Origin: Candidatus Rokuibacteriota bacterium
GTDB lineage: Bacteria > Methylomirabilota > Methylomirabilia > Rokubacteriales > CSP1-6
DNA: 64,000 bases
Direction of reading: 5' to 3'
NCBI GenBank assembly: GCA_016866775.1
Contig: VGLJ01000006.1
Span: forward strand, 50,315-114,314
How positions within the stretch are numbered: the stretch's first letter is position 1; each line of letters starts with the position of its first letter. This document shows positions 10,846-19,746 of the stretch, in pieces. The position numbers were made by a program, and so were the translations under genes. The notes beneath the pieces were generated by a model. The model did not search any database and was not told the origin of the DNA. It saw only the letters and a list, made by a program, of their open reading frames with translations.

Positions 10846-11738
10846 TGGCCACCGTCGAGACCTTCGCCGACGTTCCGGAAGCGAGCGCGGCCGCCCGCTG
10901 GCGGACGTTCGTCGTGGACTTCTGCCGGCAGCGGCCGCTGGGCGCGATCGGCGCCGCCGTCGTGCTGCTCAACCTCGTCGTCGCCGCGCTCGCGAACGTC
11001 ATCTCGCCCTACGACCCGCTCGCGACCGACTACGGCGCGATGCTCGCGGCGCCGAGCCGCGCCCACTGGCTCGGGACCGACGCGTTCGGCCGCGACGTGC
11101 TGACCCGCATCCTCTACGGCTCGCGCACGGCGATGCTCGTCGGGTTCTCGTGCGCGTTCATCGGCGCCACGCTCGGCGCCGTCATCGGCGTCACCAGCGC
11201 GTACTTCGGGGGCAAGGTCGACCTGCTGATCCAGCGCGTGATGGACATCTTCCTCTCGTTCCCGCTCATCATCCTCGCCCTCGCGGTGGTGGCGATGCTC
11301 GGGACGGGGCTGGAGAACGTCATCGCCGCGATCACGGTGCCGATGATCCCGCGCGCCGCGCTCGTCGCCCGGTCGAGCGCGCTCGCGATCCGCGAGATGC
11401 CGTACGTCGACGCCGCGCGCGCGGCCGGCTTCCGGCACGGGCGCATCATCCTCCGGCACATGTCGCCGAACGTGATGGCGCCGTATCTGATCATGCTCAC
11501 GGCGTTCCTCGGCCAGGCGATCCTGCTCGAGGCGTCGCTGTCGTTCCTCGGTCTCGGCGTGTCGGAGCCGACGCCGGCGTGGGGGCTCATGCTGCGCGGC
11601 GCCGCCGTGCAGTTCGCGGAGTCGGCGCCCTGGATGGCGATCTTCCCCGGGCTGGCGATCAGCCTCGCGGTGTTCGCCTTCAACCTGTTCGGCGACTCGC
11701 TGCGGGACGCGCTGGACCCGCGATTGCGGACCCAGTGA
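10846..11738 (+). CDS. ABC transporter permease (DppC/OppC type)
   Basis: [10 protein letters not shown]...LGTDAFGRDVLTRILYGSR. The TGATG junction joins it to the previous gene. Confidence 0.9.
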
Positions 11739-11782
11739 TTGACACGCTTCGTCAGAACGCGGTAGAAATCCGTGGTTAGACC
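11739..11782 (+). promoter_or_regulatory. Possible sigma70-like promoter (TTGACA, 18-nt spacer, TAGAAA) plus the 10-mer tggttagacc upstream of the ferredoxin gene
   Basis: ttgacacgcttcgtcagaacgcggtagaaatccgtggttagacc. The same 10-mer also occurs at 7887-7896 upstream of the ABC operon. Confidence 0.3.
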
Positions 11783-11822
11783 GGACGGTTAGCTCAAGGT
11801 TTTTTCGAGGCGGGAGGCCCTC

Positions 11823-12089
<267 letters not shown>

Positions 12090-12112
12090 GGGCGACGCCT
12101 CTCCGTCCGGAC

Positions 12113-12141
12113 CGAGGGCCCCGCATGGGGCCCTCTTTTTT
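12113..12141 (+). terminator. Rho-independent terminator (9-bp GC stem gagggcccc/ggggccctc, loop gcat, T7 tract)
   Basis: accGAGGGCCCCgcatGGGGCCCTCttttttt lies immediately after the ferredoxin stop. Confidence 0.85.
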
Positions 12142-12234
12142 TGTGCCCGGCGCTCGCGGCACAACGCCACGGTGTGAAGGCAGCGCATGCGCGTCGATCA
12201 CGCGCGAGCCGCGACATTCTGCGAATCTCGCGCG

Positions 12235-12249
12235 TGGCACACGCGTTGC
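12235..12249 (+). promoter_or_regulatory. Near-consensus sigma54 promoter TGGCAC-ACGCG-TTGC
   Basis: cgcgTGGCACacgcgTTGCCacacccgcgcgccATG. It is embedded in a short inverted repeat (gtggca...tgccac) and sits about 15 nt upstream of the Fis-like ORF start. Confidence 0.45.
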
Positions 12250-12263
12250 CACACCCGCGCGCC

Positions 12264-12491
12264 ATGGCGATCTTTCCCGAACCGAACGCCGGGTTCGACG
12301 TGCCCTTCGGCTACCACTGTGCCGTGTCCGCGTTCAAGCGCCGTCTCATCGAATCCGCGCTGCGCGACGCGGCGGGCAATCGCACGCACGCCGCGCGCGT
12401 GCTCGGGCTGCAGCGGACGTACCTGCTGCGCTTGATCCGCGAGCTGCGCGTGGCCGCGCCGCCGCCACCGGAGCGCCGCCGCCGCGAGTGA
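12264..12491 (+). CDS. Small Fis-family HTH protein, or a C-terminal DNA-binding remnant of a sigma54 activator (uncertain)
   Basis: MAIFPEPNAGFDVPFGYHCAVSAFKRRLIESALRDAAGNRTHAARVLGLQRTYLLRLIRELRV is a Fis/NtrC-type HTH_8. 75 aa from the first ATG of ORF 12141..12491. Confidence 0.35.
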   Translation: MAIFPEPNAGFDVPFGYHCAVSAFKRRLIESALRDAAGNRTHAARVLGLQRTYLLRLIRELRVAAPPPPERRRRE

Positions 12492-12606
12492 GCGGCGGTT
12501 CGAGCGCCGACTTTGCCGGCGCACTCCGAGGGGGAGGCAGGGAGGCGCGTGCCGCAAGGCGCGCGACGACCGTCGGAAGGGGGACGGAGCCCCCCTCCGA
12601 GTAGAA

Positions 12607-13737
12607 TTGCTCGCGATGCCAGTCTTCATCGCGGGCGCGGGGATGACCCGCATCGGGCGGCGCAGCGAGGCGCTGCCCGACCTCATGGCCGAGGCGGCGC
12701 ACGCCGCGCTCGCGGCGGCCGCGGTCGACGTGCCCGACGCGATCGTCGTCGCCACGATGAACCCGGAAGAGTTTCTCGGCGACGGCAACTTCGCCTCGCG
12801 CGTGGCGACGCACATGGGCTTCGCGGAGGTGCCGACGCTGCGCGTCGAGACCGCGACGTCGTCGGGCGCCGCCGCCTTCTACACGGGCTTCGCGCAGGTC
12901 GCGGCCGGCCTGCGCCAGCGCGTGCTCGTCGTCGGCGGCGAGAAGATGACGCATCTCTCGACGCCGCGCGTGTCCGAGCTCATCGGCCGGTCCATCGATC
13001 CGTACGAGCGGTCGTACGGCGCGACGATGCCGGCGCTCGCGGGACTGATCACGCGGGCGCTCACGCAGCAGGGCGTCGGCCTGCGCGAGTTCTCCCAGGT
13101 GGCGGTGAAGAACCACGGGCACGCCGCGCGCAATCCCTACGCCCACTACACGGCGCTCGTGACACTCGCGCACGTGATGGAGTCGCGCATGGTTGCGGAC
13201 CCGCTGCGCCTCCTCCACTGTTGCCCGATCTCCGACGGCGCCGCGGCGGTCGTCCTGACGTCGGCGCCGACGCCCGTGCGCGTCGCGGGCGTCGGGCAGG
13301 GGACCGACACGCTCGCCGTGCGTCACCGGCACTCGCTCACGGCGTTCCGCGCCACGCAGGAAGCGGCGAAGGCCGCGTACGCGATGGCGGGCTTCGGCCC
13401 GGAGCGCGTCGACTTCGCGGAGCTGCACGACGCGTTCACGCCGTTCGAGCTCATCGCGCTGGAGGACACGGGCCTGATACCGCCGGGCAAGGCAGGCCGC
13501 GCGACGCTCGACGGCGACACCGCGCTCGACGGCCGGCTGCCGATCAATCCCTCCGGCGGTCTCAAGGCGCGCGGGCATCCGCTCGCCGCGACGGGCATCG
13601 CGCAGATCGTGGAGTGCGTGTGGCAGCTCACCGGCGGCGCGGCGGGCCGTCAGGTCCAGGGGCGCGTGGCGCTCGCGCACTCGATCGGCGGCCTCGCGAC
13701 CAACAACTGGGTGACCCTCCTGGAGCGCACGCGGTGA
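12607..13737 (+). CDS. Thiolase-like protein (SCP-x / non-decarboxylating thiolase domain, DUF35-partner type)
   Basis: MPVFIAGAGMTRIGRR... active-site region HCCPISDGAAAVVL and C-terminal NPSGGLKARGHPLAATG. 376 aa. Confidence 0.85.
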   Translation: MLAMPVFIAGAGMTRIGRRSEALPDLMAEAAHAALAAAAVDVPDAIVVATMNPEEFLGDGNFASRVATHMGFAEVPTLRVETATSSGAAAFYTGFAQVAAGLRQRVLVVGGEKMTHLSTPRVSELIGRSIDPYERSYGATMPALAGLITRALTQQGVGLREFSQVAVKNHGHAARNPYAHYTALVTLAHVMESRMVADPLRLLHCCPISDGAAAVVLTSAPTPVRVAGVGQGTDTLAVRHRHSLTAFRATQEAAKAAYAMAGFGPERVDFAELHDAFTPFELIALEDTGLIPPGKAGRATLDGDTALDGRLPINPSGGLKARGHPLAATGIAQIVECVWQLTGGAAGRQVQGRVALAHSIGGLATNNWVTLLERTR

Positions 13738-14162
13738 TCGAGACCATCGCGGCCTCGAAGTGCCCGCGGTGCGAGGCCGTCGTGGCGCCCCCGGCGCCGT
13801 ATTGCCCGCGCCACCCGGTCGCCATGACGCCGGTCGCGCTGTCGGGGATCGGCGAGGTCGTCACCTACACCACGCTCCACGCGCCGCCCGAAGGCTTCCG
13901 CTCGCCGCTCCACATCGCGCTCGTCGAGCTCGAGGACGGCGCGCGCTTCGTCTGTCACGGCTCCGAGACGCGCGGCCTGAAGGTCGGCGCGACGGTCGCC
14001 ATCGAAGCCATCGACAACGTGTACTATTTCTCGCACCTCGGCACGCTCGACCGCGCCTTGATCTTCTGGCGCCGCGCGGGCCGGGCCGGCGACAAGGTGA
14101 ACGCGTTCGCGCGCAGCCTCGCCAAGCGCATGTGGAAAGGAAGAGTCCGTGCCGAAGACTAA
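13734..14162 (+). CDS. DUF35 OB-fold / Zn-ribbon protein (thiolase partner)
   Basis: GTGA overlap with the thiolase stop. Zn-ribbon is KCPRCEAVVAPPAPYCPRH followed by OB-fold-like sequence. It is the C-terminus of composite ORF 12513..14162. Confidence 0.8.
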   Translation: MIETIAASKCPRCEAVVAPPAPYCPRHPVAMTPVALSGIGEVVTYTTLHAPPEGFRSPLHIALVELEDGARFVCHGSETRGLKVGATVAIEAIDNVYYFSHLGTLDRALIFWRRAGRAGDKVNAFARSLAKRMWKGRVRAED

Positions 14163-15342
14163 GCCCCTCGCCGGCATCCGCGTGCTCGATCTCACCCGCG
14201 TGCTCGCGGGACCGTTCTGCTCGATGATCCTCGCCGACATGGGCGCCGAGGTCATCAAGATCGAGGAGCCGGGCAAGGGCGACGACACGCGGAGCTGGCC
14301 GCCGTTCGTCGGGGGCGAGGCCACCTACTTCATGTCGGTCAACCGCAACAAGAAGAGCGTCACGTTCAATCTGAAGTCGCCGTCCGCGCGCAAGCTCCTC
14401 GTCGCCCTCGTCAAGAAGAGCGACGTCGTCCTCGAGAACTTCCGGCCCGGCACGATGGAGAAGCTCGGACTCGGCTACGCGACGCTCTCGAAGGTGAACC
14501 CGAAGCTCATCTACTGCGCGGTGTCGGGCTTCGGCGAATCCGGGCCGGAGGGCGGCAAGGCGGGATACGACCTCATCATCCAGGGTGAGAGCGGCCTGAT
14601 GGACATCACGGGCTTCGCCGACGGACCGCCGCTCAAGATGGGGACGTCCATCGCGGACCTCGTTGCCGGCATGTCGGCCGCGCACGGCGTGACGCTGGCC
14701 TTGCTGGCGCGCGCGAAGACGAAGCGCGGACAGAAGGTGGAGCTCGGCATGCTGGACGCGATGGCCGCGCTGCTCACGTATCAGGCCGGTATCTACTGGG
14801 GCACGGGCCAGAAGCCGGGCCGCCGCGGCAACGCGCACCCGTCGATCGTGCCGTACGAAGTCTTCAAGGCGGCCGACGCGTACCTGACGCTCGGTGTCGC
14901 GAACAACTCGCTGTGGGAGCGGTCCTGCGCGGCGATGGAGCGGCCGGACCTCGTGAAGGACGAGCGCTTCGCGACCGAGGCCGCCCGCGTCGAGAACCGC
15001 GCCACGCTCGTGCCGCTGCTGAACGAGATCCTCGGCGAGCGCAGCGCGGACGAGTGGATGAAGCGCCTCGAAGCGCAGGGCGTGCCGGCGGGCCGCATCC
15101 GCACGGTGCCCGAGGTCTGCGAGAGTGAACATCTGAAGGCGCGCGGCATGATCCAGCGCCTCACGCATCCCAAGGCCGGCGCCATCACCGTGATGGGCGT
15201 GCCGATCAGGCTGCACGCGACGCCCGGCGAGGTGAAGACGGCGCCGCCCACACTCGGCCAGCACACGGACCAGGTGCTGCGCACGCTCCTCAAGCTGAAG
15301 CCGGCGGAGATCAAGGCGCTGCGCACCGAGGGCGCGCTCTAG
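14149..15342 (+). CDS. Family III CoA-transferase (CaiB/BaiF family)
   Basis: MPKTKPLAGIRVLDLTRVLAGPFCSMILADMGAEVIKIE is the hallmark N-terminus. 397 aa. Confidence 0.9.
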   Translation: MPKTKPLAGIRVLDLTRVLAGPFCSMILADMGAEVIKIEEPGKGDDTRSWPPFVGGEATYFMSVNRNKKSVTFNLKSPSARKLLVALVKKSDVVLENFRPGTMEKLGLGYATLSKVNPKLIYCAVSGFGESGPEGGKAGYDLIIQGESGLMDITGFADGPPLKMGTSIADLVAGMSAAHGVTLALLARAKTKRGQKVELGMLDAMAALLTYQAGIYWGTGQKPGRRGNAHPSIVPYEVFKAADAYLTLGVANNSLWERSCAAMERPDLVKDERFATEAARVENRATLVPLLNEILGERSADEWMKRLEAQGVPAGRIRTVPEVCESEHLKARGMIQRLTHPKAGAITVMGVPIRLHATPGEVKTAPPTLGQHTDQVLRTLLKLKPAEIKALRTEGAL

Positions 15343-15351
15343 GACATCCTA

Positions 15352-15379
15352 CAGAGAGGTTCAACTAGAGAGGTTCAAC
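15352..15379 (+). repeat. Perfect tandem direct repeat agagaggttcaac x2 (1-nt spacer) just upstream of the selenoprotein operon. Putative operator or regulator-binding site.
   Basis: acAGAGAGGTTCAACtAGAGAGGTTCAACgacGGGAGGacgagATG. It is a locally AT-rich island in a 70% GC genome. Confidence 0.6.
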
Positions 15380-15393
15380 GACGGGAGGACGAG

Positions 15394-15636
15394 ATGGCCG
15401 GACAGGTGACGGTCTACACGAACATCGGCTGAGGGCCCTGCCACCGCGCGGTAGAGTATCTATCGCAAAAAGGTGTGGCGTTCACCGAGAAGAACGTCGG
15501 GCGCGATCCGCAGGCGCGGCAGGAGCTGATGGAGCTCGGGCTGCTCTCGCTGCCGGTGCTGCTCATCGGCGACCAGAAGCTCACGGGCTTCAATCCCGCC
15601 AAGATCGACGAAGCGCTGGGGAGCCTCAATGGCTGA
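15394..15636 (+). CDS. Glutaredoxin-like thiol-disulfide oxidoreductase with in-frame UGA (putative selenocysteine) in a U-G-P-C redox motif. Not present in the ORF track.
   Basis: GGGAGGA RBS, ATG at 15394, TGA at 15430-15432. The readthrough product is MAGQVTVYTNIG-U-GPCHRAVEYLSQKGVAFTEKNVGRDPQARQELMELGLLSLPVLLIGDQKLTGFNPAKIDEALGSLNG. That is a Grx/NrdH-like fold with U replacing the first Cys of CxxC. The stop at 15634 overlaps the next gene's start. Confidence 0.7.
15448..15466 (+). promoter_or_regulatory. Candidate bacterial SECIS hairpin, 16 nt downstream of the UGA
   Basis: GCGGUA-GAGUAUC-UAUCGC is a 6-bp stem (one G-U pair) with a 7-nt loop containing GU. An alternative palindrome CCGCGCGG is adjacent. 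Confidence 0.35.
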
Positions 15637-16042
15637 AGGGGCACCGTTGCAGGCGAACATCGACAAGATGTGGAAGTACGCCGAGAAGTACGCGGAGAAG
15701 TCCGGCACGTCGCTCCATCCCGACCGCGGCGTCACGGAAGCGGTCGTGAACGGGCTCGCGCGCCACATCGAGCTGGTCGGCCGCCCGCTCTGTCCCTGCA
15801 ACTTCTACCCGGACCCCGCGGCGGAGGCGAAGAACCGCCGCTGGATCTGCGCCTGTGACGAGATGCAGAAGTGGAAGTACTGCCACTGCCTCCTGTTCGT
15901 GACGCCGGAAGGAGTTCCGATCACCGAGTACCTGCCCGAGGACCACGAGGGCCGGCAAGCCTACGGGGTCGTGAAGGACCCCCATCCCGACAAGGGCCGC
16001 GCCGTCGGCAAGATCCTCGAGAAGCGCGAGACGGAAGGCTGA
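15629..16042 (+). CDS. Ferredoxin:thioredoxin reductase catalytic subunit homologue (FtrC-like ferredoxin:disulfide reductase)
   Basis: The CPCNFYPD...CACDEMQKWKYCHCLLFVTPEG arrangement matches the FTR catalytic CPC...CHC 4Fe-4S/redox-disulfide signature. 137 aa. Confidence 0.8.
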   Translation: MAEGAPLQANIDKMWKYAEKYAEKSGTSLHPDRGVTEAVVNGLARHIELVGRPLCPCNFYPDPAAEAKNRRWICACDEMQKWKYCHCLLFVTPEGVPITEYLPEDHEGRQAYGVVKDPHPDKGRAVGKILEKRETEG

Positions 16043-17088
16043 GCGCCGCGGGCGACGAGGGGCGCGCGCACGCGCCCGATCCTGCAGCCCTGATCGAGAC
16101 GTACTTCGAGCGCGGCTGGACCGACGGCCTGCCCGTCGTTCCGCCGACCGAGACGTCCATCGCCGCCATGCTCGCCGGGGGCGGCCTGCGCGGCGACGAA
16201 GTCTTCGGCGAGATTCCCGGGCGCAACACCGTGGTGGTCGCCGACAAGGTGGCGATCAACGCCGTGCTCGCCGGCTGCCGGCCCGACTACTTTCCCGTCG
16301 TCGTCGCCGCGGTGAAAGCGCTCTGTCATCCCGACTTCGCGTATCACGGCCCCGCGTCCAGCACCGGCGGCTCCGCCATCGTCCTCGTCGTCAACGGTCC
16401 GATCCGCCACCGCGTCGGTCTCAACGCCGGCAACAACCTCTTCGGCCAGGGCACGCGCGCGAACGCCACCATCGGCCGTGCCGTGCGGCTGACGATGATG
16501 AACGTGATGCAGACGCGGCCCGGCTTCTTCGATCGCGCGACGCTCGGCAATCCCGGCAAGTACTCGTTCTGCTTCGCGGAGAACGAGGAGGAGTCGCCGT
16601 GGCCGCCCCTCCACGTCGAGCGTGGCTGTCGTCCCGAAGAGAGCGCGGTCACGGTCTACGCGTCGAACAGCCTCTACCAGGTCTACAACCAGCTCGCCGC
16701 GACGCCGGAGCCGCTGCTCCGGTGCTTCGCCGACGCGCTGTCGAACCTCGGGCTGCCGAACGTGAAGGGCTTCAACCAGGCCCTGCTCGTCTTCGCGGGC
16801 GAGCACAGCGAGGTGCTCGCGAAGAGCGGCTGGTCGCGGCGCGAGGTCGCCGCGTTCCTCATCGAGCACGCGCGCCGGCCGCTCGCCGACTTCAAGCGCG
16901 CCACGCGCCTGCCGGGCGAGCCGACCGCCTCCGACGAGACGACGGTGCGCGCGCTCTTCGAGCGCCCCGAGGATGTCCTGATCGTGTCGGCGGGAGGCCG
17001 CGCCGGGAGCTGGTCCGCGTGTCTTCCCGGCTGGGGCAACAAGTGGACGAAGGCCGTGACCGCGGTCATCGAGGAGGGCAGCGCATGA
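16039..17088 (+). CDS. Conserved hypothetical protein of about 350 aa in the selenoprotein operon. The start codon is unresolved.
   Basis: Conserved-looking sequence ETYFERGWTDGLPVVPPTETSIAAML...VVVADKVAINAVLAGCRPDYFPVVVAAVKAL. There is no in-frame ATG or GTG between the FtrC stop and that region. It ends in an ATGA overlap with the UGSC gene. It is part of ORF 15871..17088. Confidence 0.5.
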   Translation: MSAAGDEGRAHAPDPAALIETYFERGWTDGLPVVPPTETSIAAMLAGGGLRGDEVFGEIPGRNTVVVADKVAINAVLAGCRPDYFPVVVAAVKALCHPDFAYHGPASSTGGSAIVLVVNGPIRHRVGLNAGNNLFGQGTRANATIGRAVRLTMMNVMQTRPGFFDRATLGNPGKYSFCFAENEEESPWPPLHVERGCRPEESAVTVYASNSLYQVYNQLAATPEPLLRCFADALSNLGLPNVKGFNQALLVFAGEHSEVLAKSGWSRREVAAFLIEHARRPLADFKRATRLPGEPTASDETTVRALFERPEDVLIVSAGGRAGSWSACLPGWGNKWTKAVTAVIEEGSA

Positions 17089-17606
17089 CCAAGATCTTCG
17101 ACCCCACCGCCGCGCCCGTCGCGCGCGCCGTCGCGCTCGCCGCGCGCCCGGTCGAGCTCCGCGGCCTGCGCCTCGGCCTCGTCGAGAACACCAAGTTCAA
17201 CTCGGACACGCTGCTGCTGAAGCTCGCCGACCGACTCCGCGAGCGGCACGGCATCACGATGACGCACATGGCGCGCAAGCGCTCGCCGAGCCACGAAGTG
17301 GACGAGCGCGCGATCGCCGCGCTCAAGGAGCGGAGCGACGTCGTCGTCTCGGGCATCGGCGACTGAGGGTCCTGCTCGTCGAGCAGTGTGCTCGACGCGA
17401 TCCTGCTGGAGCAGCACGGCGTGCCCGCCGTGGCGATCGTGACCGACGTCTTTCGCGCGACCGGCGAGACGATGGCGATGAGCTGGGGCCTGGCGGGCTA
17501 CCCGTTCCTCGACACGCCGCATCCCATCGCCAACCTCCGCGACAAGGATCTCGACGCGCGCGCCGACCGGCTCGTCGAGCCGGTCGTGGCGTTGCTGACG
17601 CGTTAG
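17085..17606 (+). CDS. UGSC-family (seleno)protein: in-frame UGA giving the motif GIGD-U-GSC. Split into two ORFs in the track.
   Basis: ATG at 17085 (ATGA overlap). TGA at 17364-17366 is in frame with the downstream ORF 17388..17606. The joined product is ...ERSDVVVSGIGD-U-GSCSSSSVLDAILLEQHGVPAVAIVTDVFRATGETMAMSWGLAGYPFLDTPH...LLTR, about 173 aa. Confidence 0.7.
17372..17394 (+). promoter_or_regulatory. Candidate SECIS hairpins 6-17 nt after the second UGA
   Basis: CUGCU-CGUCG-AGCAG and the overlapping CGAGC-AGUGU-GCUCG both have GU in the loop. Confidence 0.35.
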
Positions 17607-17626
17607 CGGCCGCGCGCGCCGACGAT

Positions 17627-17700
17627 CAAGAGGACCACGCCCGCTGCCACGGCGACACCGCCGAGCCACGGTGGCAACGGGATGGCGTCCTCTTTTTTCG
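17627..17700 (+). terminator. Terminator-like structure after the UGSC gene (aagaggac...gtcctc stem followed by a T6 tract)
   Basis: caAGAGGACcacgcc...ggcGTCCTCTtttttcgtttcc. The loop is long and imperfect. Confidence 0.4.
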
Positions 17701-17733
17701 TTTCCACCTTTCATGAACTTCAGAGTACAGGGC

Positions 17734-17765
17734 GTGGCCAGGATCTTGTGTGGCCAGGATCTTGT
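17734..17765 (+). repeat. Perfect tandem direct repeat gtggccaggatcttgt x2
   Basis: ggcGTGGCCAGGATCTTGTGTGGCCAGGATCTTGTataga lies in a relatively AT-rich 560-bp intergenic region between the selenoprotein operon and cimA. Confidence 0.6.
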
Positions 17766-17878
17766 ATAGAAGGCAGCGAAGGCCCCGCGGTGCAGCCCGA
17801 ATGCGGGCCTCGATACCACGACAGGGAAAAAACTCTGCCTGGCCTGGGTCCGACGCTCCACACGGTGGTGCGCCCGTA

Positions 17879-18133
17879 GTGTCGCCGGCGCGACTCCTCT
17901 TCATCGTCGCGGCGGGACGCGACGACCTTGCCGATCTCTTGCGACGGCAATTCGCCGACGTCCCCGACTCCGTCGAGGTCGTCGCCGACCGCCGCATGGG
18001 CGACCGCCGCCGACACGATCTGCCCGTCAGCAGCGATCGGCGCCTGGGTTCGCGACGGCGGCTCGATGTCGAGGCCGATCTCTCCTCGATCGGCTGGGCG
18101 CTCGTCCGCCGACCGCACCTTGGGGTTTGTTGA
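17879..18133 (+). CDS. Possible small ORF (85 aa, GTG start), Arg-rich. Weak PilZ-like RRxxxR...DxSxxG spacing.
   Basis: [47 protein letters not shown]...DLSSIGWAL. It could equally be a leader or attenuator region for cimA. Confidence 0.25.
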
Positions 18134-18165
18134 CACTCGGCCGGGCGGCCGGGCACGATCGGCGG

Positions 18166-19746
18166 ATGCGACGGCTGATCCGGATCGACGACACCACGCT
18201 GCGCGACGGCACGCAGGGCGAGGGCGTGTCGTTCTCCAGCGAGGACAAGGTACGGCTCGCGAGCCGGATGGATGCGCTCGGCATCCACTACATCGAAGGC
18301 GGGTGGCCGGGCGCGAATCCGAACGACCTCCGCTTCTTCCGTCGCATGCAGGACGTGACGCTGAAGCACGCCAAGCTCGCGGCGTTCTCGATGACGCGCC
18401 GGGCGGGCGGCCGCGCCGAGGGCGACCAGAACATGCAGGCGCTCATCGACGCGGGCGGGCCCGTGGCGACGATCGTCGGCAAGTCGTGGGACTTCCACGT
18501 GACGGACGCGCTGGGCACGACGCTGCCCGAGAACCTCGCGATGATCGGCGACACCATCGCGTACCTGCGGCCGCGCATGGACGAGGTCCTCTTCGACGCC
18601 GAGCATTTCTTCGACGGGTTCCGCGCGAATCGCGACTACGCGCTCGCCACGCTGAAAGCGGCGGCCGACGCCGGCGCGCACTGGCTCGTCCTCTGCGACA
18701 CGAACGGCGGCACGCTGCCCGCGGACCTCGTCGAGATCATCCGCGCGGTGAAGCGCCACGTGAGCGCGCGGCTCGGCATCCACGTCCACAACGACGCGGA
18801 GTGCGCGGTGGCGAATTCGCTCGCGGCCGTCGCCGAGGGCTGCGAGCAGGTGCAGGGCACGCTCAACGGCTTCGGCGAGCGCTGCGGCAACGCGAACCTC
18901 GTCTCCGTCATCCCCGCGCTCGTGCTGAAGATGAAGCTCGAGTGCATCCCGGAGGCGAACCTGCGCGAGCTGCGCGACGTCTCGCGCTTCGTCTCCGAGC
19001 TCGCGAACCGGAAGCCATGGAGCTCGCAGCCGTACGTCGGCGACTCCGCGTTCGCGCACAAGGGCGGCATGCACGTGTCCGCGGCGCAGAAGCACCCCGA
19101 GACGTACGAGCACATCGATCCCGAGGCCGTCGGCAACCATCGCCGCGTGCTCGTCTCCGAGCTGTCCGGCACGTCGAACATCCTCTGGAAGGCGAAGGAG
19201 TTCGGCATCGACCTCGACCACGAGACGCCGGACTCGCGGCGCATCCTCGATCGGCTGAAGGAGCTCGAGGACCAGGGCTTCCTGTTCGAGGGCGCCGAGG
19301 CGTCGTTCGAGCTCCTGATGGAGCGCGCGCTCGGCCGCCACAAGGCGTGGTTCCAGCTCGAGGCGTATCGCGTGATCGTCGAGGAGCAGACCGGCGACGA
19401 CGCCGCGCCGGTCGCGGAAGCGACGGTGCGCGTGCGCGTGAAGGGGATGCTCGAGCACACCGCCGCGTCGGGCAACGGCCCCGTGAACGCGCTCGACCAC
19501 GCGCTCCGCAAGGCGCTCGAGGAGTTCTATCCGAGCCTCAAGACCATGAAGCTCCTCGACTACAAGGTGCGGATCCTCGACGAGACCGCGGGCACCGCGG
19601 CGAAGACGCGCGTGCTGATCACGTCGGGCGACGGCGAGGAGACGTGGGGCACCGTCGGCGTCGCCGAGAACATCATCGAGGCGTCCTGGCAGGCCCTGGT
19701 CGACTCCATCGAGTACAAGCTCCGACGCGACGAGCGCCAGCGGTAG
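18166..19746 (+). CDS. cimA: Citramalate synthase / 2-isopropylmalate synthase family (LeuA-type catalytic TIM barrel plus LeuA_dimer domain)
   Basis: [24 protein letters not shown]...[17 protein letters not shown]...[15 protein letters not shown]. 526 aa. CimA versus LeuA cannot be distinguished from sequence alone. Confidence 0.8.

Follow-up and report, generated by a model that had tools for sequence, protein, structure and literature searches.

A Rokubacterial gene cluster joining a selenocysteine glutaredoxin and a ferredoxin:thioredoxin reductase homologue to a UGSC selenoprotein and its conserved partner

Organization of the locus

Analysis of a 64,000-nucleotide (nt) stretch of DNA from a Candidatus Rokuibacteriota bacterium (contig VGLJ01000006.1, positions 50,315 to 114,314; the whole stretch is called the window below) revealed a cluster of four co-directional genes, g1 to g4, with overlapping reading frames at positions 15394 to 17606 of the + strand. 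The G+C content of the window is 70%. The genes encode a predicted selenocysteine (Sec)-containing glutaredoxin (Grx), a homologue of the catalytic subunit of ferredoxin:thioredoxin reductase (FTR; catalytic subunit, FTRc), a protein of 349 codons that accompanies UGSC proteins, and a predicted selenoprotein of the UGSC family. Comparison with related loci revealed that the cluster consists of two conserved modules positioned side by side, module A (Sec-Grx and FTR) and module B (g3 and UGSC). A first-pass annotation, made from the sequence without database searches, had already recognized the four overlapping genes at essentially the positions given here and had named g1, g2, and g4 correctly, as the profile matches reported below demonstrate. 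The features of the cluster are as follows.

15394-15636, + strand: g1, Sec-Grx, 80 amino acids, PF00462; UGA at 15430-15432
15448-15466, + strand: Sec insertion sequence (SECIS)-like apical hairpin of g1, 8 base pairs with a GUA loop, from RNA folding and conservation
15629-16042, + strand: g2, FTRc homologue, 137 amino acids, PF02943; 8-nt overlap with g1
16039-17088, + strand: g3, UGSC partner, 349 codons; frame counted from the CTG in cCTGA, overlapping the stop codon of g2
17085-17606, + strand: g4, UGSC selenoprotein, 173 amino acids, PF24696 and NF041046; ATGA overlap with g3
17366-17404, + strand: SECIS-like hairpin of g4 with an apical 9-base-pair stem at 17377-17397, from RNA folding and conservation

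Two conserved gene pairs

Two samples of related loci were compared. The FTR sample comprised 80 metagenomic loci with close FTR homologues, of which 71 have room upstream, i.e., at least 300 nt of sequence 5' of the FTR gene, and 66 have enough downstream sequence. The g3 sample was drawn from GTDB with one genome per species and comprised the best 80 of at least 598 stretches with g3 relatives; a UGSC gene was counted as a neighbor if it was located no more than 4 kb from g3. A Sec-Grx gene is positioned directly 5' of the close FTR homologue at all 71 loci with room, and this constant neighborhood makes FTR the candidate reductase partner of g1. A UGSC gene lies near g3 in 71 of the 80 GTDB species, usually immediately downstream. 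The g3 loci belong to Methylomirabilota, Binatia, Dehalococcoidia and other Chloroflexota, Acidobacteriota, Burkholderiales, Alpha- and Gammaproteobacteria, Myxococcota, and others, and the g3 family as a whole spans thousands of sequence clusters and at least eight phyla.

The two partners of module B were also found as single proteins. UGSC is fused to the N terminus of g3 in, for example, P0139, P0160, P0165, and P0187. Among the fusions listed, the proteins P0143, P0155, P0156, P0158, P0164, and P0211 start after the Sec codon and run into g3, and fusions of the reverse order, P0126 and P0135, end at the Sec codon. Because g3 and UGSC are adjacent in most species and are fused in both orders, they appear to form one obligate unit.

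The complete four-gene layout with overlapping frames was seen in four lineages, namely, the window, L086/L087, L091, and the contig encoding P0011, all of which fall into one clade of Rokubacteria. These lineages have a wider synteny in common, with genes for a ferredoxin, an HTH_8 protein, a thiolase, a DUF35 OB-fold protein, and a family III coenzyme A (CoA)-transferase upstream and a citramalate synthase gene downstream. In this clade, two conserved modules are joined whose parts, except for g3, belong to known families.

Selenocysteine codons of g1 and g4

The g1 protein matched PF00462 with 52.8 bits (cut-off, 22.9 bits; E value, 4.6e-14). Its putative active site, U13-G-P-C16, lies near the N terminus, and the gene is preceded by a Shine-Dalgarno sequence, GGGAGGA, at 15383-15389. 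Searching for solved relatives, among which Grx and NrdH chains were matched, identified glutaredoxin 7c10 as the closest one (5e-16), which we take to be the Clostridium Grx1 protein. Since the scores of the named NCBIfam equivalogs stayed under their cut-offs (TIGR02196, 73.3 versus 88.55; TIGR02194, 54.5 versus 85.75; NF041212, 39.6 versus 66), g1 is classed as a Grx-like (YruB/NrdH-like) protein outside the named YruB, NrdH, and Uxx-star subfamilies. A UGA is present at the same codon in all 71 related Grx genes whose alignment covers this position, and the frame continues past it. The hairpin of g1 (19 nt) begins 16 nt after the UGA. Comparison of 24 distinct sequences revealed that 100% of its helix cells are paired, with a compensatory change from C-G to U-A at one pair (10 sequences) and a one-sided G-U wobble at two pairs. 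The conserved UGA, the maintained frame, and the hairpin with its compensatory change show that the g1 UGA is recoded as Sec.

The g4 protein matched PF24696 with 184.7 bits (cut-off, 25; E value, 2e-54) and NF041046 with 136.8 bits (cut-off, 125). It carries the motif D-U94-G-S-C97, with the in-frame UGA located at 17364-17366. In UGSC genes beside g3 homologues from many phyla, the Sec position is occupied by TGA in 71 of 75 cases and by a cysteine (Cys) codon in the other 4. A hairpin is located at the same site after the UGA in most of about 65 distinct UGSC sequences, and both sides of the stem change together, e.g., from GCA/UGC to GGA/UCC. Full-length Cys homologues exist as well, including an Advenella protein annotated as 'UGSC family (seleno)protein.' The conservation of the UGA, of the frame, and of the hairpin shows that the g4 UGA, too, is recoded as Sec. 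Thus, both Sec codons proposed in the first-pass annotation are supported, and its remark that two Sec genes in one operon would be unusual does not apply to this phylum, which includes a metagenome-assembled genome with 63 predicted selenoprotein genes (PMC13188914).

A quite different explanation would be that the in-frame TGAs are true stops or sequencing errors; g1 and g4 would then be disrupted, and g3 would be a pseudogene that lacks a start. It is in line with this explanation that standard gene callers split or truncate the genes and that a tRNA-Sec gene was not found within the window. However, the UGA is kept at an identical position in the Grx and UGSC genes with the frame open on both sides, the SECIS-like hairpins covary, and homologues have Cys in the same column. 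The frame of g3 is maintained over a 12-nt indel in L086, and a great wealth of selenoproteins has been reported for the phylum (PMC13188914). The broken-gene explanation is effectively refuted and is given hardly any weight.

A Cys homologue 48% identical to g4 was used as a stand-in for the window protein in fold modeling. The model revealed a Rossmann-like (Rossmann/flavodoxin-like) alpha/beta fold. The thioredoxin (Trx)-like fold suggested for UGSC proteins (PMC2398784) is not supported by this model.

The FTR catalytic-subunit homologue

The g2 protein matched PF02943 with 84.5 bits (cut-off, 22; E value, 6.5e-24) and aligned to the solved FTRc structures 7bzk and 1dj7 with E values of 1e-24 to 3e-23. 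All six Cys residues and the His were matched in these alignments; in g2 they form the motifs C54-P-C56, C73-A-C75, and C84-H85-C86, which are followed by a C-terminal tail of about 40 amino acids. The middle motif is CAC and not CPC. The spacing CxC-x16-CxC-x8-CxC is kept in all 80 close FTR relatives. No gene for the variable FTR subunit (FTRv) was noted at the locus, although no separate search for FTRv was made; since FTRv is exclusive to oxygenic phototrophs (PMC9025218), a bacterial FTRc homologue would be expected to lack it.

The partner protein g3

Comparison of the g3 protein with Pfam and NCBIfam profiles revealed no match, in agreement with the first-pass description of a protein without a recognizable domain. 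Searching 1.84 billion cluster representatives (clusters at 50% identity) revealed homologues in 5134 clusters at an E value of 1e-3 or lower and in 1242 clusters at 1e-30 or lower, and an AlphaFold2 model reached a mean predicted local distance difference test (pLDDT) score of 92.7. These results indicate that g3 is clearly coding and dispose of a doubt raised in the first-pass annotation, namely that the reading frame might be non-coding. The near-invariant residues are D29, GLPxxPP, N74, C80, Y84, N129, R140, N142, T144, R147, C178, E181, and W188; two of them are Cys (C80 and C178), and the conserved patch is rich in Arg, Asn, and Thr. Profile searches of g3 and UGSC against the Protein Data Bank revealed nothing meaningful. 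As a further observation, two g3 domains are arranged in tandem in proteins of about 715 amino acids (P0121, P0122, P0124, P0131, P0132, and P0138).

ATG, GTG, and TTG are all lacking before the conserved N terminus of g3, as had been pointed out earlier together with the possibility of a CTG start. Homologues start with ATG 8 to 12 residues ahead of the conserved DPAALIE...GWTDGLPVVPPT motif. The g2/g3 junction, cCTGA, is repeated in L086 (g3 88% identical) and in L091 (85% identical), and in L091 the sequence AAGGAGG is positioned 7 nt 5' of the CTG. The contig of P0011 (g3 86% identical) has an ordinary ATG and a 14-nt overlap with the FTR gene. Because a canonical start is lacking and cCTGA is conserved in three lineages, translation of g3 probably starts at CTG 16039 by termination-reinitiation coupled to g2. 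Two other possibilities were rejected. A start at GTG 15871 would lengthen the protein by 56 residues rich in Arg and Pro, read from another frame within g2, and the homologues are without such an extension. A programmed -1 frameshift from g2 into g3 was dismissed as well, as the bases before the stop vary among lineages (GAAGGC, GAAGCC, and GAGGGC) and there is no slippery site.

Fusion of g3 to redox domains

Single proteins that combine FTRc and g3 were found in P0175 and in six further clusters, P0322 to P0327. Their N-terminal FTRc domain has the motifs CPC...CPC...CHC, and their g3 domain is about 45% identical to P0002, the search query from Rokubacteria. The FTRc-g3 gene is preceded by a Sec-UGSC gene in every contig examined. 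In 16 of the 80 GTDB species, an N-terminal Trx-like domain with a conserved CxxC is fused to g3 (e.g., L035 3569-3979 and L084 3425-3979). The linker between these domains contains a conserved motif, (R/K)PGCGS(K/R/L), whose CGS resembles the UGSC motif; two of the loci (L053 and L074) are without an adjacent UGSC gene, and one of the Trx-like-g3 proteins matches AhpC-TSA/Redoxin. A small CxxC domain is positioned at the N terminus of g3 in P0128 and is encoded by a separate gene for 85 amino acids after UGSC in Advenella (L168 9569-9826). The fusions to FTRc, to Trx-like domains, and to the small CxxC domain show that g3 repeatedly recruits dithiol redox domains, FTR included. Of all observations, they provide the strongest argument that the Grx-FTR pair supplies electrons to g3-UGSC in the window.

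Two side observations concern these proteins. The FTRc-g3 fusions are encoded by a separate high-GC clade (L171 970-2935, L174 5444-7386, and L176 146-1785). The 85-residue protein of Advenella has the motif A-C-x-D-C-L-x-P-K and may represent a third type of redox partner.

Proposed electron relay and its alternatives

To account for the gene order and the fusions, we propose a relay in which electrons pass from ferredoxin via FTR and Sec-Grx to UGSC/g3 and on to a substrate, a reading toward which we lean by a small degree. In this relay, module A would constitute a ferredoxin-dependent glutaredoxin reductase system consisting of Sec-Grx and an FTR-type [4Fe-4S]/disulfide reductase. Module B would be a two-subunit selenoenzyme composed of the Rossmann-like UGSC protein, with the selenol/thiol pair of its U-G-S-C motif, and the g3 protein of about 340 residues. 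Reduced ferredoxin would reduce the cluster and the disulfide of FTR, FTR would then reduce the selenenylsulfide of Sec-Grx, and Sec-Grx in turn would reduce the selenenylsulfide (Se-S bond) of UGSC. Finally, UGSC together with the active site of g3 would reduce the substrate. The gene identities, Sec recoding at the two UGA codons, and the pairings within modules A and B, with the g3-UGSC fusions, are shown by the data above. We infer the flow of electrons from module A to module B, its direction, and the catalytic chemistry of g3, and likewise the individual transfers (Grx to UGSC, then UGSC to g3) and the kind of substrate. On the basis of the Arg/Asn/Thr patch, a weak fumarase-like fold, and gene contexts with organic-acid and acyl-CoA genes, we guess at a substrate with a carboxylate group.

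The first-pass annotation had envisaged such a relay as self-contained and as possibly serving both other proteins of a compact four-gene operon. The FTRc-g3 and Trx-like-g3 fusions speak for the relay, but g3 and UGSC are one unit and not two separate clients. The four genes are not conserved as one operon; there are two conserved pairs that occur together only in one Rokubacteria clade. A neighborhood search, which had been suggested to decide the matter, gave a divided answer: it revealed the four-gene layout in four lineages and the clade with FTRc-g3 fusions, but the two pairs were rarely found together. After close FTR genes, g3-UGSC is present at 1 of the 66 loci with downstream room (L091), and tblastn detected neither Grx nor FTR within 4 kb of g3 at any of the best 80 GTDB loci.

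These counts weigh against the proposed relay, and so do several further observations. In a close relative, represented by the contigs L088 (3985-4425) and L089, a gene for a CheY-like receiver protein of 146 amino acids is located where the window has g3-UGSC. The FTR protein there is 94% identical, and the CoA-transferase, Grx, and FTR genes upstream and the citramalate synthase gene downstream are kept; therefore, g3-UGSC has been inserted or deleted at this site. In the contigs examined, no Grx gene was found near the FTRc-g3 fusion genes, so that Grx is perhaps not obligatory in the chain. In most Rokubacteria (L096 to L167), two other genes follow the Grx-FTR pair about 0.8 to 1.7 kb 3' of FTR. 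One is an open reading frame of about 185 codons (26 loci), which visual inspection suggested to be AhpD/carboxymuconolactone decarboxylase (CMD)-like, and the other encodes a TPR protein (20 loci). These two proteins may be the usual clients of the Grx-FTR pair, and an AhpD/CMD-like neighbor would fit a general redox role of the pair. Finally, structure searches with the g3 model revealed weak similarities only, with no close solved structure, and among them was a weak likeness to class I fumarate hydratase.

From the same observations it could be argued that modules A and B are functionally independent, that their adjacency arose from a local insertion or rearrangement, and that co-transcription is incidental. 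Sec-Grx and FTR would then be a housekeeping ferredoxin-dependent thiol system, and g3-UGSC would be reduced by any thioredoxin or glutaredoxin. The 65 of 66 close FTR loci without g3-UGSC, the 80 of 80 best g3 loci without a nearby FTR or Grx gene, and the CheY-like gene at the same syntenic site of L088 are all in favor of independence. The neighbors of g3-UGSC also vary widely across genomes. In other Rokubacteria they include nitrile hydratase and MsrA, MsrB and TctCBA, or amidohydrolase and xanthine-dehydrogenase-type genes, and in Advenella g3-UGSC sits in an acyl-CoA catabolic cluster. Speaking against independence are the FTRc-g3 and Trx-like-g3 fusions, which originated separately in other lineages, and the translation of g3, which seems to be coupled to the termination of FTR by cCTGA in three lineages. 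We regard functional independence of the modules as unlikely.

Among the neighbors, MsrB is encoded directly 3' of g3-UGSC in L170 (5550-6026), and a metallo-beta-lactamase-fold gene and MsrA are located 3' of g3-UGSC in L169 (5568-7018). Methionine sulfoxide reductase is not supported as a conserved client, as it was found at two Rokubacteria loci and at none of the 80 GTDB loci. CoA-transferase III was considered as a possible specific partner; its genes are present near g3 at 11 of the 80 GTDB loci, in Advenella, and in the clade of the window; paralogues are very numerous in such genomes, and CoA-transferase III also adjoins Grx-FTR loci without g3.

In another alternative, g3-UGSC would not be a reductase that cycles thiols and selenols but an enzyme with a metal or iron-sulfur center, a distant relative of class I fumarate hydratase and other hydro-lyases. 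Here Cys80 and Cys178 of g3 and the Sec or Cys of UGSC would ligate a metal or cluster where the two subunits meet, and the FTR or Trx-like partners would keep this site reduced or assembled. The two near-invariant Cys residues of g3, to which UGSC would add two ligands, are consistent with such a site, the Arg/Asn/Thr patch would suit a carboxylate substrate, and organic-acid and acyl-CoA genes are abundant in the gene contexts. However, g3 gave no Pfam Fumerase match and falls outside the class I fumarate hydratase/tartrate dehydratase family, and the Rossmann-like UGSC is unlike the fumarase beta subunit. A UxxC at the N terminus of a helix and the repeated fusion to CxxC domains are, moreover, typical of dithiol/selenothiol exchange. 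An interfacial metal site is thus judged distinctly improbable.

Returning to the proposed relay, a more far-reaching version of it is put forward tentatively and with considerable doubt. According to this version, g3-UGSC would represent a previously unrecognized two-subunit selenoenzyme class that reductively transforms a small carboxylate metabolite. The electrons would come from low-potential ferredoxin via an FTR-type reductase and Sec-Grx or, in other organisms, through fused FTR or Trx-like domains.

Flanking features, transcription, and annotation

Two further features border the cluster.

15353-15379, + strand: tandem repeat, 2 x 13 nt AGAGAGGTTCAAC, 14-nt period, exact duplication
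17621-17702, + strand: long GC-rich hairpin followed by a T-run at 17692-17697; folding energy, -48.9 kcal/mol; z = -2.6

The hairpin and T-run at 17621-17702 are likely the transcription terminator of the unit; a simple terminator scan missed this hairpin. Within 11000-18300, no sigma-70-like promoter was found, and the sole clean terminator, at 12114-12135, is located 3' of a ferredoxin gene. For these two reasons, transcription of the four genes may begin farther upstream, near 12264 and past the terminator, with the cluster forming the distal end of a longer unit. An Rfam scan of the cluster and the upstream region revealed no riboswitch or known RNA; ArcZ appeared as a chance match only (E value, 0.39).

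The repeat AGAGAGGTTCAAC lies within the 51 nt that separate the CoA-transferase gene from g1. An operator role, as proposed in the first-pass annotation, was rejected. The repeat is a single site, with no further copies in the window; among 173 loci compared it was present only in the contigs of the same strain (L003 to L005), and it is missing from the homologous spacer of L086, so that no related locus has it.

Directly 5' of g1, genes for a thiolase, a DUF35 OB-fold protein, and a family III CoA-transferase are arranged with overlapping frames (12607-15342). The best matches of the window CoA-transferase (succinate-glutarate and succinyl-CoA:mesaconate CoA-transferase) stayed under the cut-offs. 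The ferredoxin gene, at approximately 11823-12089, encodes a 4Fe-4S-type protein of 88 amino acids, lies about 3.3 kb 5' of the cluster, and is followed by the terminator at 12114-12135. Its position is syntenic in L086 and in the P0011 contig. On this circumstantial basis, the window ferredoxin is a candidate electron donor for FTR.

The public gene calls on identical contigs give Grx as a fragment of 53 amino acids, cut g3 to its C-terminal 306 amino acids (public protein FJZ38_04415, with an identical sequence), and split UGSC into pieces of 93 and 72 amino acids. Hence, the public records misrepresent three of the four genes, as the first-pass annotation had anticipated, and the locus is a clean case of the mis-calling of a selenoprotein operon. 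An open reading frame for 34 amino acids, METKKEDAIPLPPWLGGVAVAAGVVLLIVGARGR, with a hydrophobic stretch, lies on the minus strand (17603-17707) within the terminator-like hairpin after g4. It is called as a gene publicly (L004 11436-11540) and may be an artifact of the hairpin.

Significance and comparison with known systems

UGSC has been listed as a major selenoprotein family of unknown function since 2007-2008 and is still described as uncharacterized in a 2026 review (PMC2398784, PMC13188914). In metagenomes from the ocean and from fresh water, few selenoproteins are more abundant than UGSC. The present analysis indicates that UGSC is nearly always accompanied by one specific partner, g3, for which no family model exists, and turns an orphan into a testable enzyme system with a possible route of electron supply. 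It names the proteins to be co-expressed and the reductant chain and suggests carboxylates as substrates worth trying.

The g4 protein is a member of the UGSC family of Zhang and Gladyshev (PMC2398784, PMC1976440). A fusion of UGSC to a conserved unknown domain ('UGSC/Unknown_1') was reported by these authors in 2008 (PMC2398784), and Unknown_1 is probably the g3 family. Their report does not mention that g3 and UGSC are nearly always adjacent, nor does it describe the fusions to FTR and Trx-like domains or the operon of Rokubacteria.

Module A resembles FTR and the archaeal and clostridial ferredoxin:disulfide reductases in the six Cys residues and the His of g2 and in the constant pairing of the gene with that of a small Trx-fold protein. 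It differs in the CAC middle motif, the tail of about 40 amino acids, the partner, which is a Grx with Sec in place of the first active-site Cys, and the proposed client, an orphan selenoenzyme. In the delivery of electrons to class III ribonucleotide reductase, an NrdH-like protein reportedly acts as the mediator. The ferredoxin disulfide reductase that delivers these electrons was described by Wei et al. in 2015, as cited in PMC5704485.

A Clostridium selenoprotein Grx1 with U13 and C16 is adapted to reduce the selenoprotein MsrA, according to Kim et al. (2011) as cited in PMC4479559. Like g1, Grx1 of Clostridium oremlandii is a small Grx with Sec13-x-x-Cys16 at the same positions, and in both cases a Sec-Grx would recycle a Sec enzyme. 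In contrast, Grx1 belongs to a glutathione system as reductant and has MsrA as its client, whereas here the relation between Grx and UGSC is deduced from gene order and fusions.

The glycine reductase (Grd) and D-proline reductase (Prd) systems provide a parallel in design, as their Sec proteins are recycled via dedicated thiol/selenol carriers whose genes belong to the respective operon (PMC3091704). It is not unusual for grd and prd operons, either, to contain two Sec genes. In common with these systems, the cluster has a UxxC selenoprotein, a larger putative catalytic subunit, and a proposed operon-encoded recycling chain. UGSC showed a marginal NCBIfam match to PrdB around the Sec residue (E value, 0.096), and neither g3 nor UGSC matched the GrdB/PrdB and GrdE/PrdA families significantly, which places them outside these families. 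Other differences are that there is no sign of a pyruvoyl proprotein here, that most hosts are aerobes or heterotrophs from soil and water, and that the donor would be ferredoxin/FTR or fused Trx-like domains. The cluster may work like the Grd and Prd systems by analogy, without being a member of them. If this is true, g3-UGSC would be comparable in logic to the glycine and proline reductases and unrelated to them in sequence.

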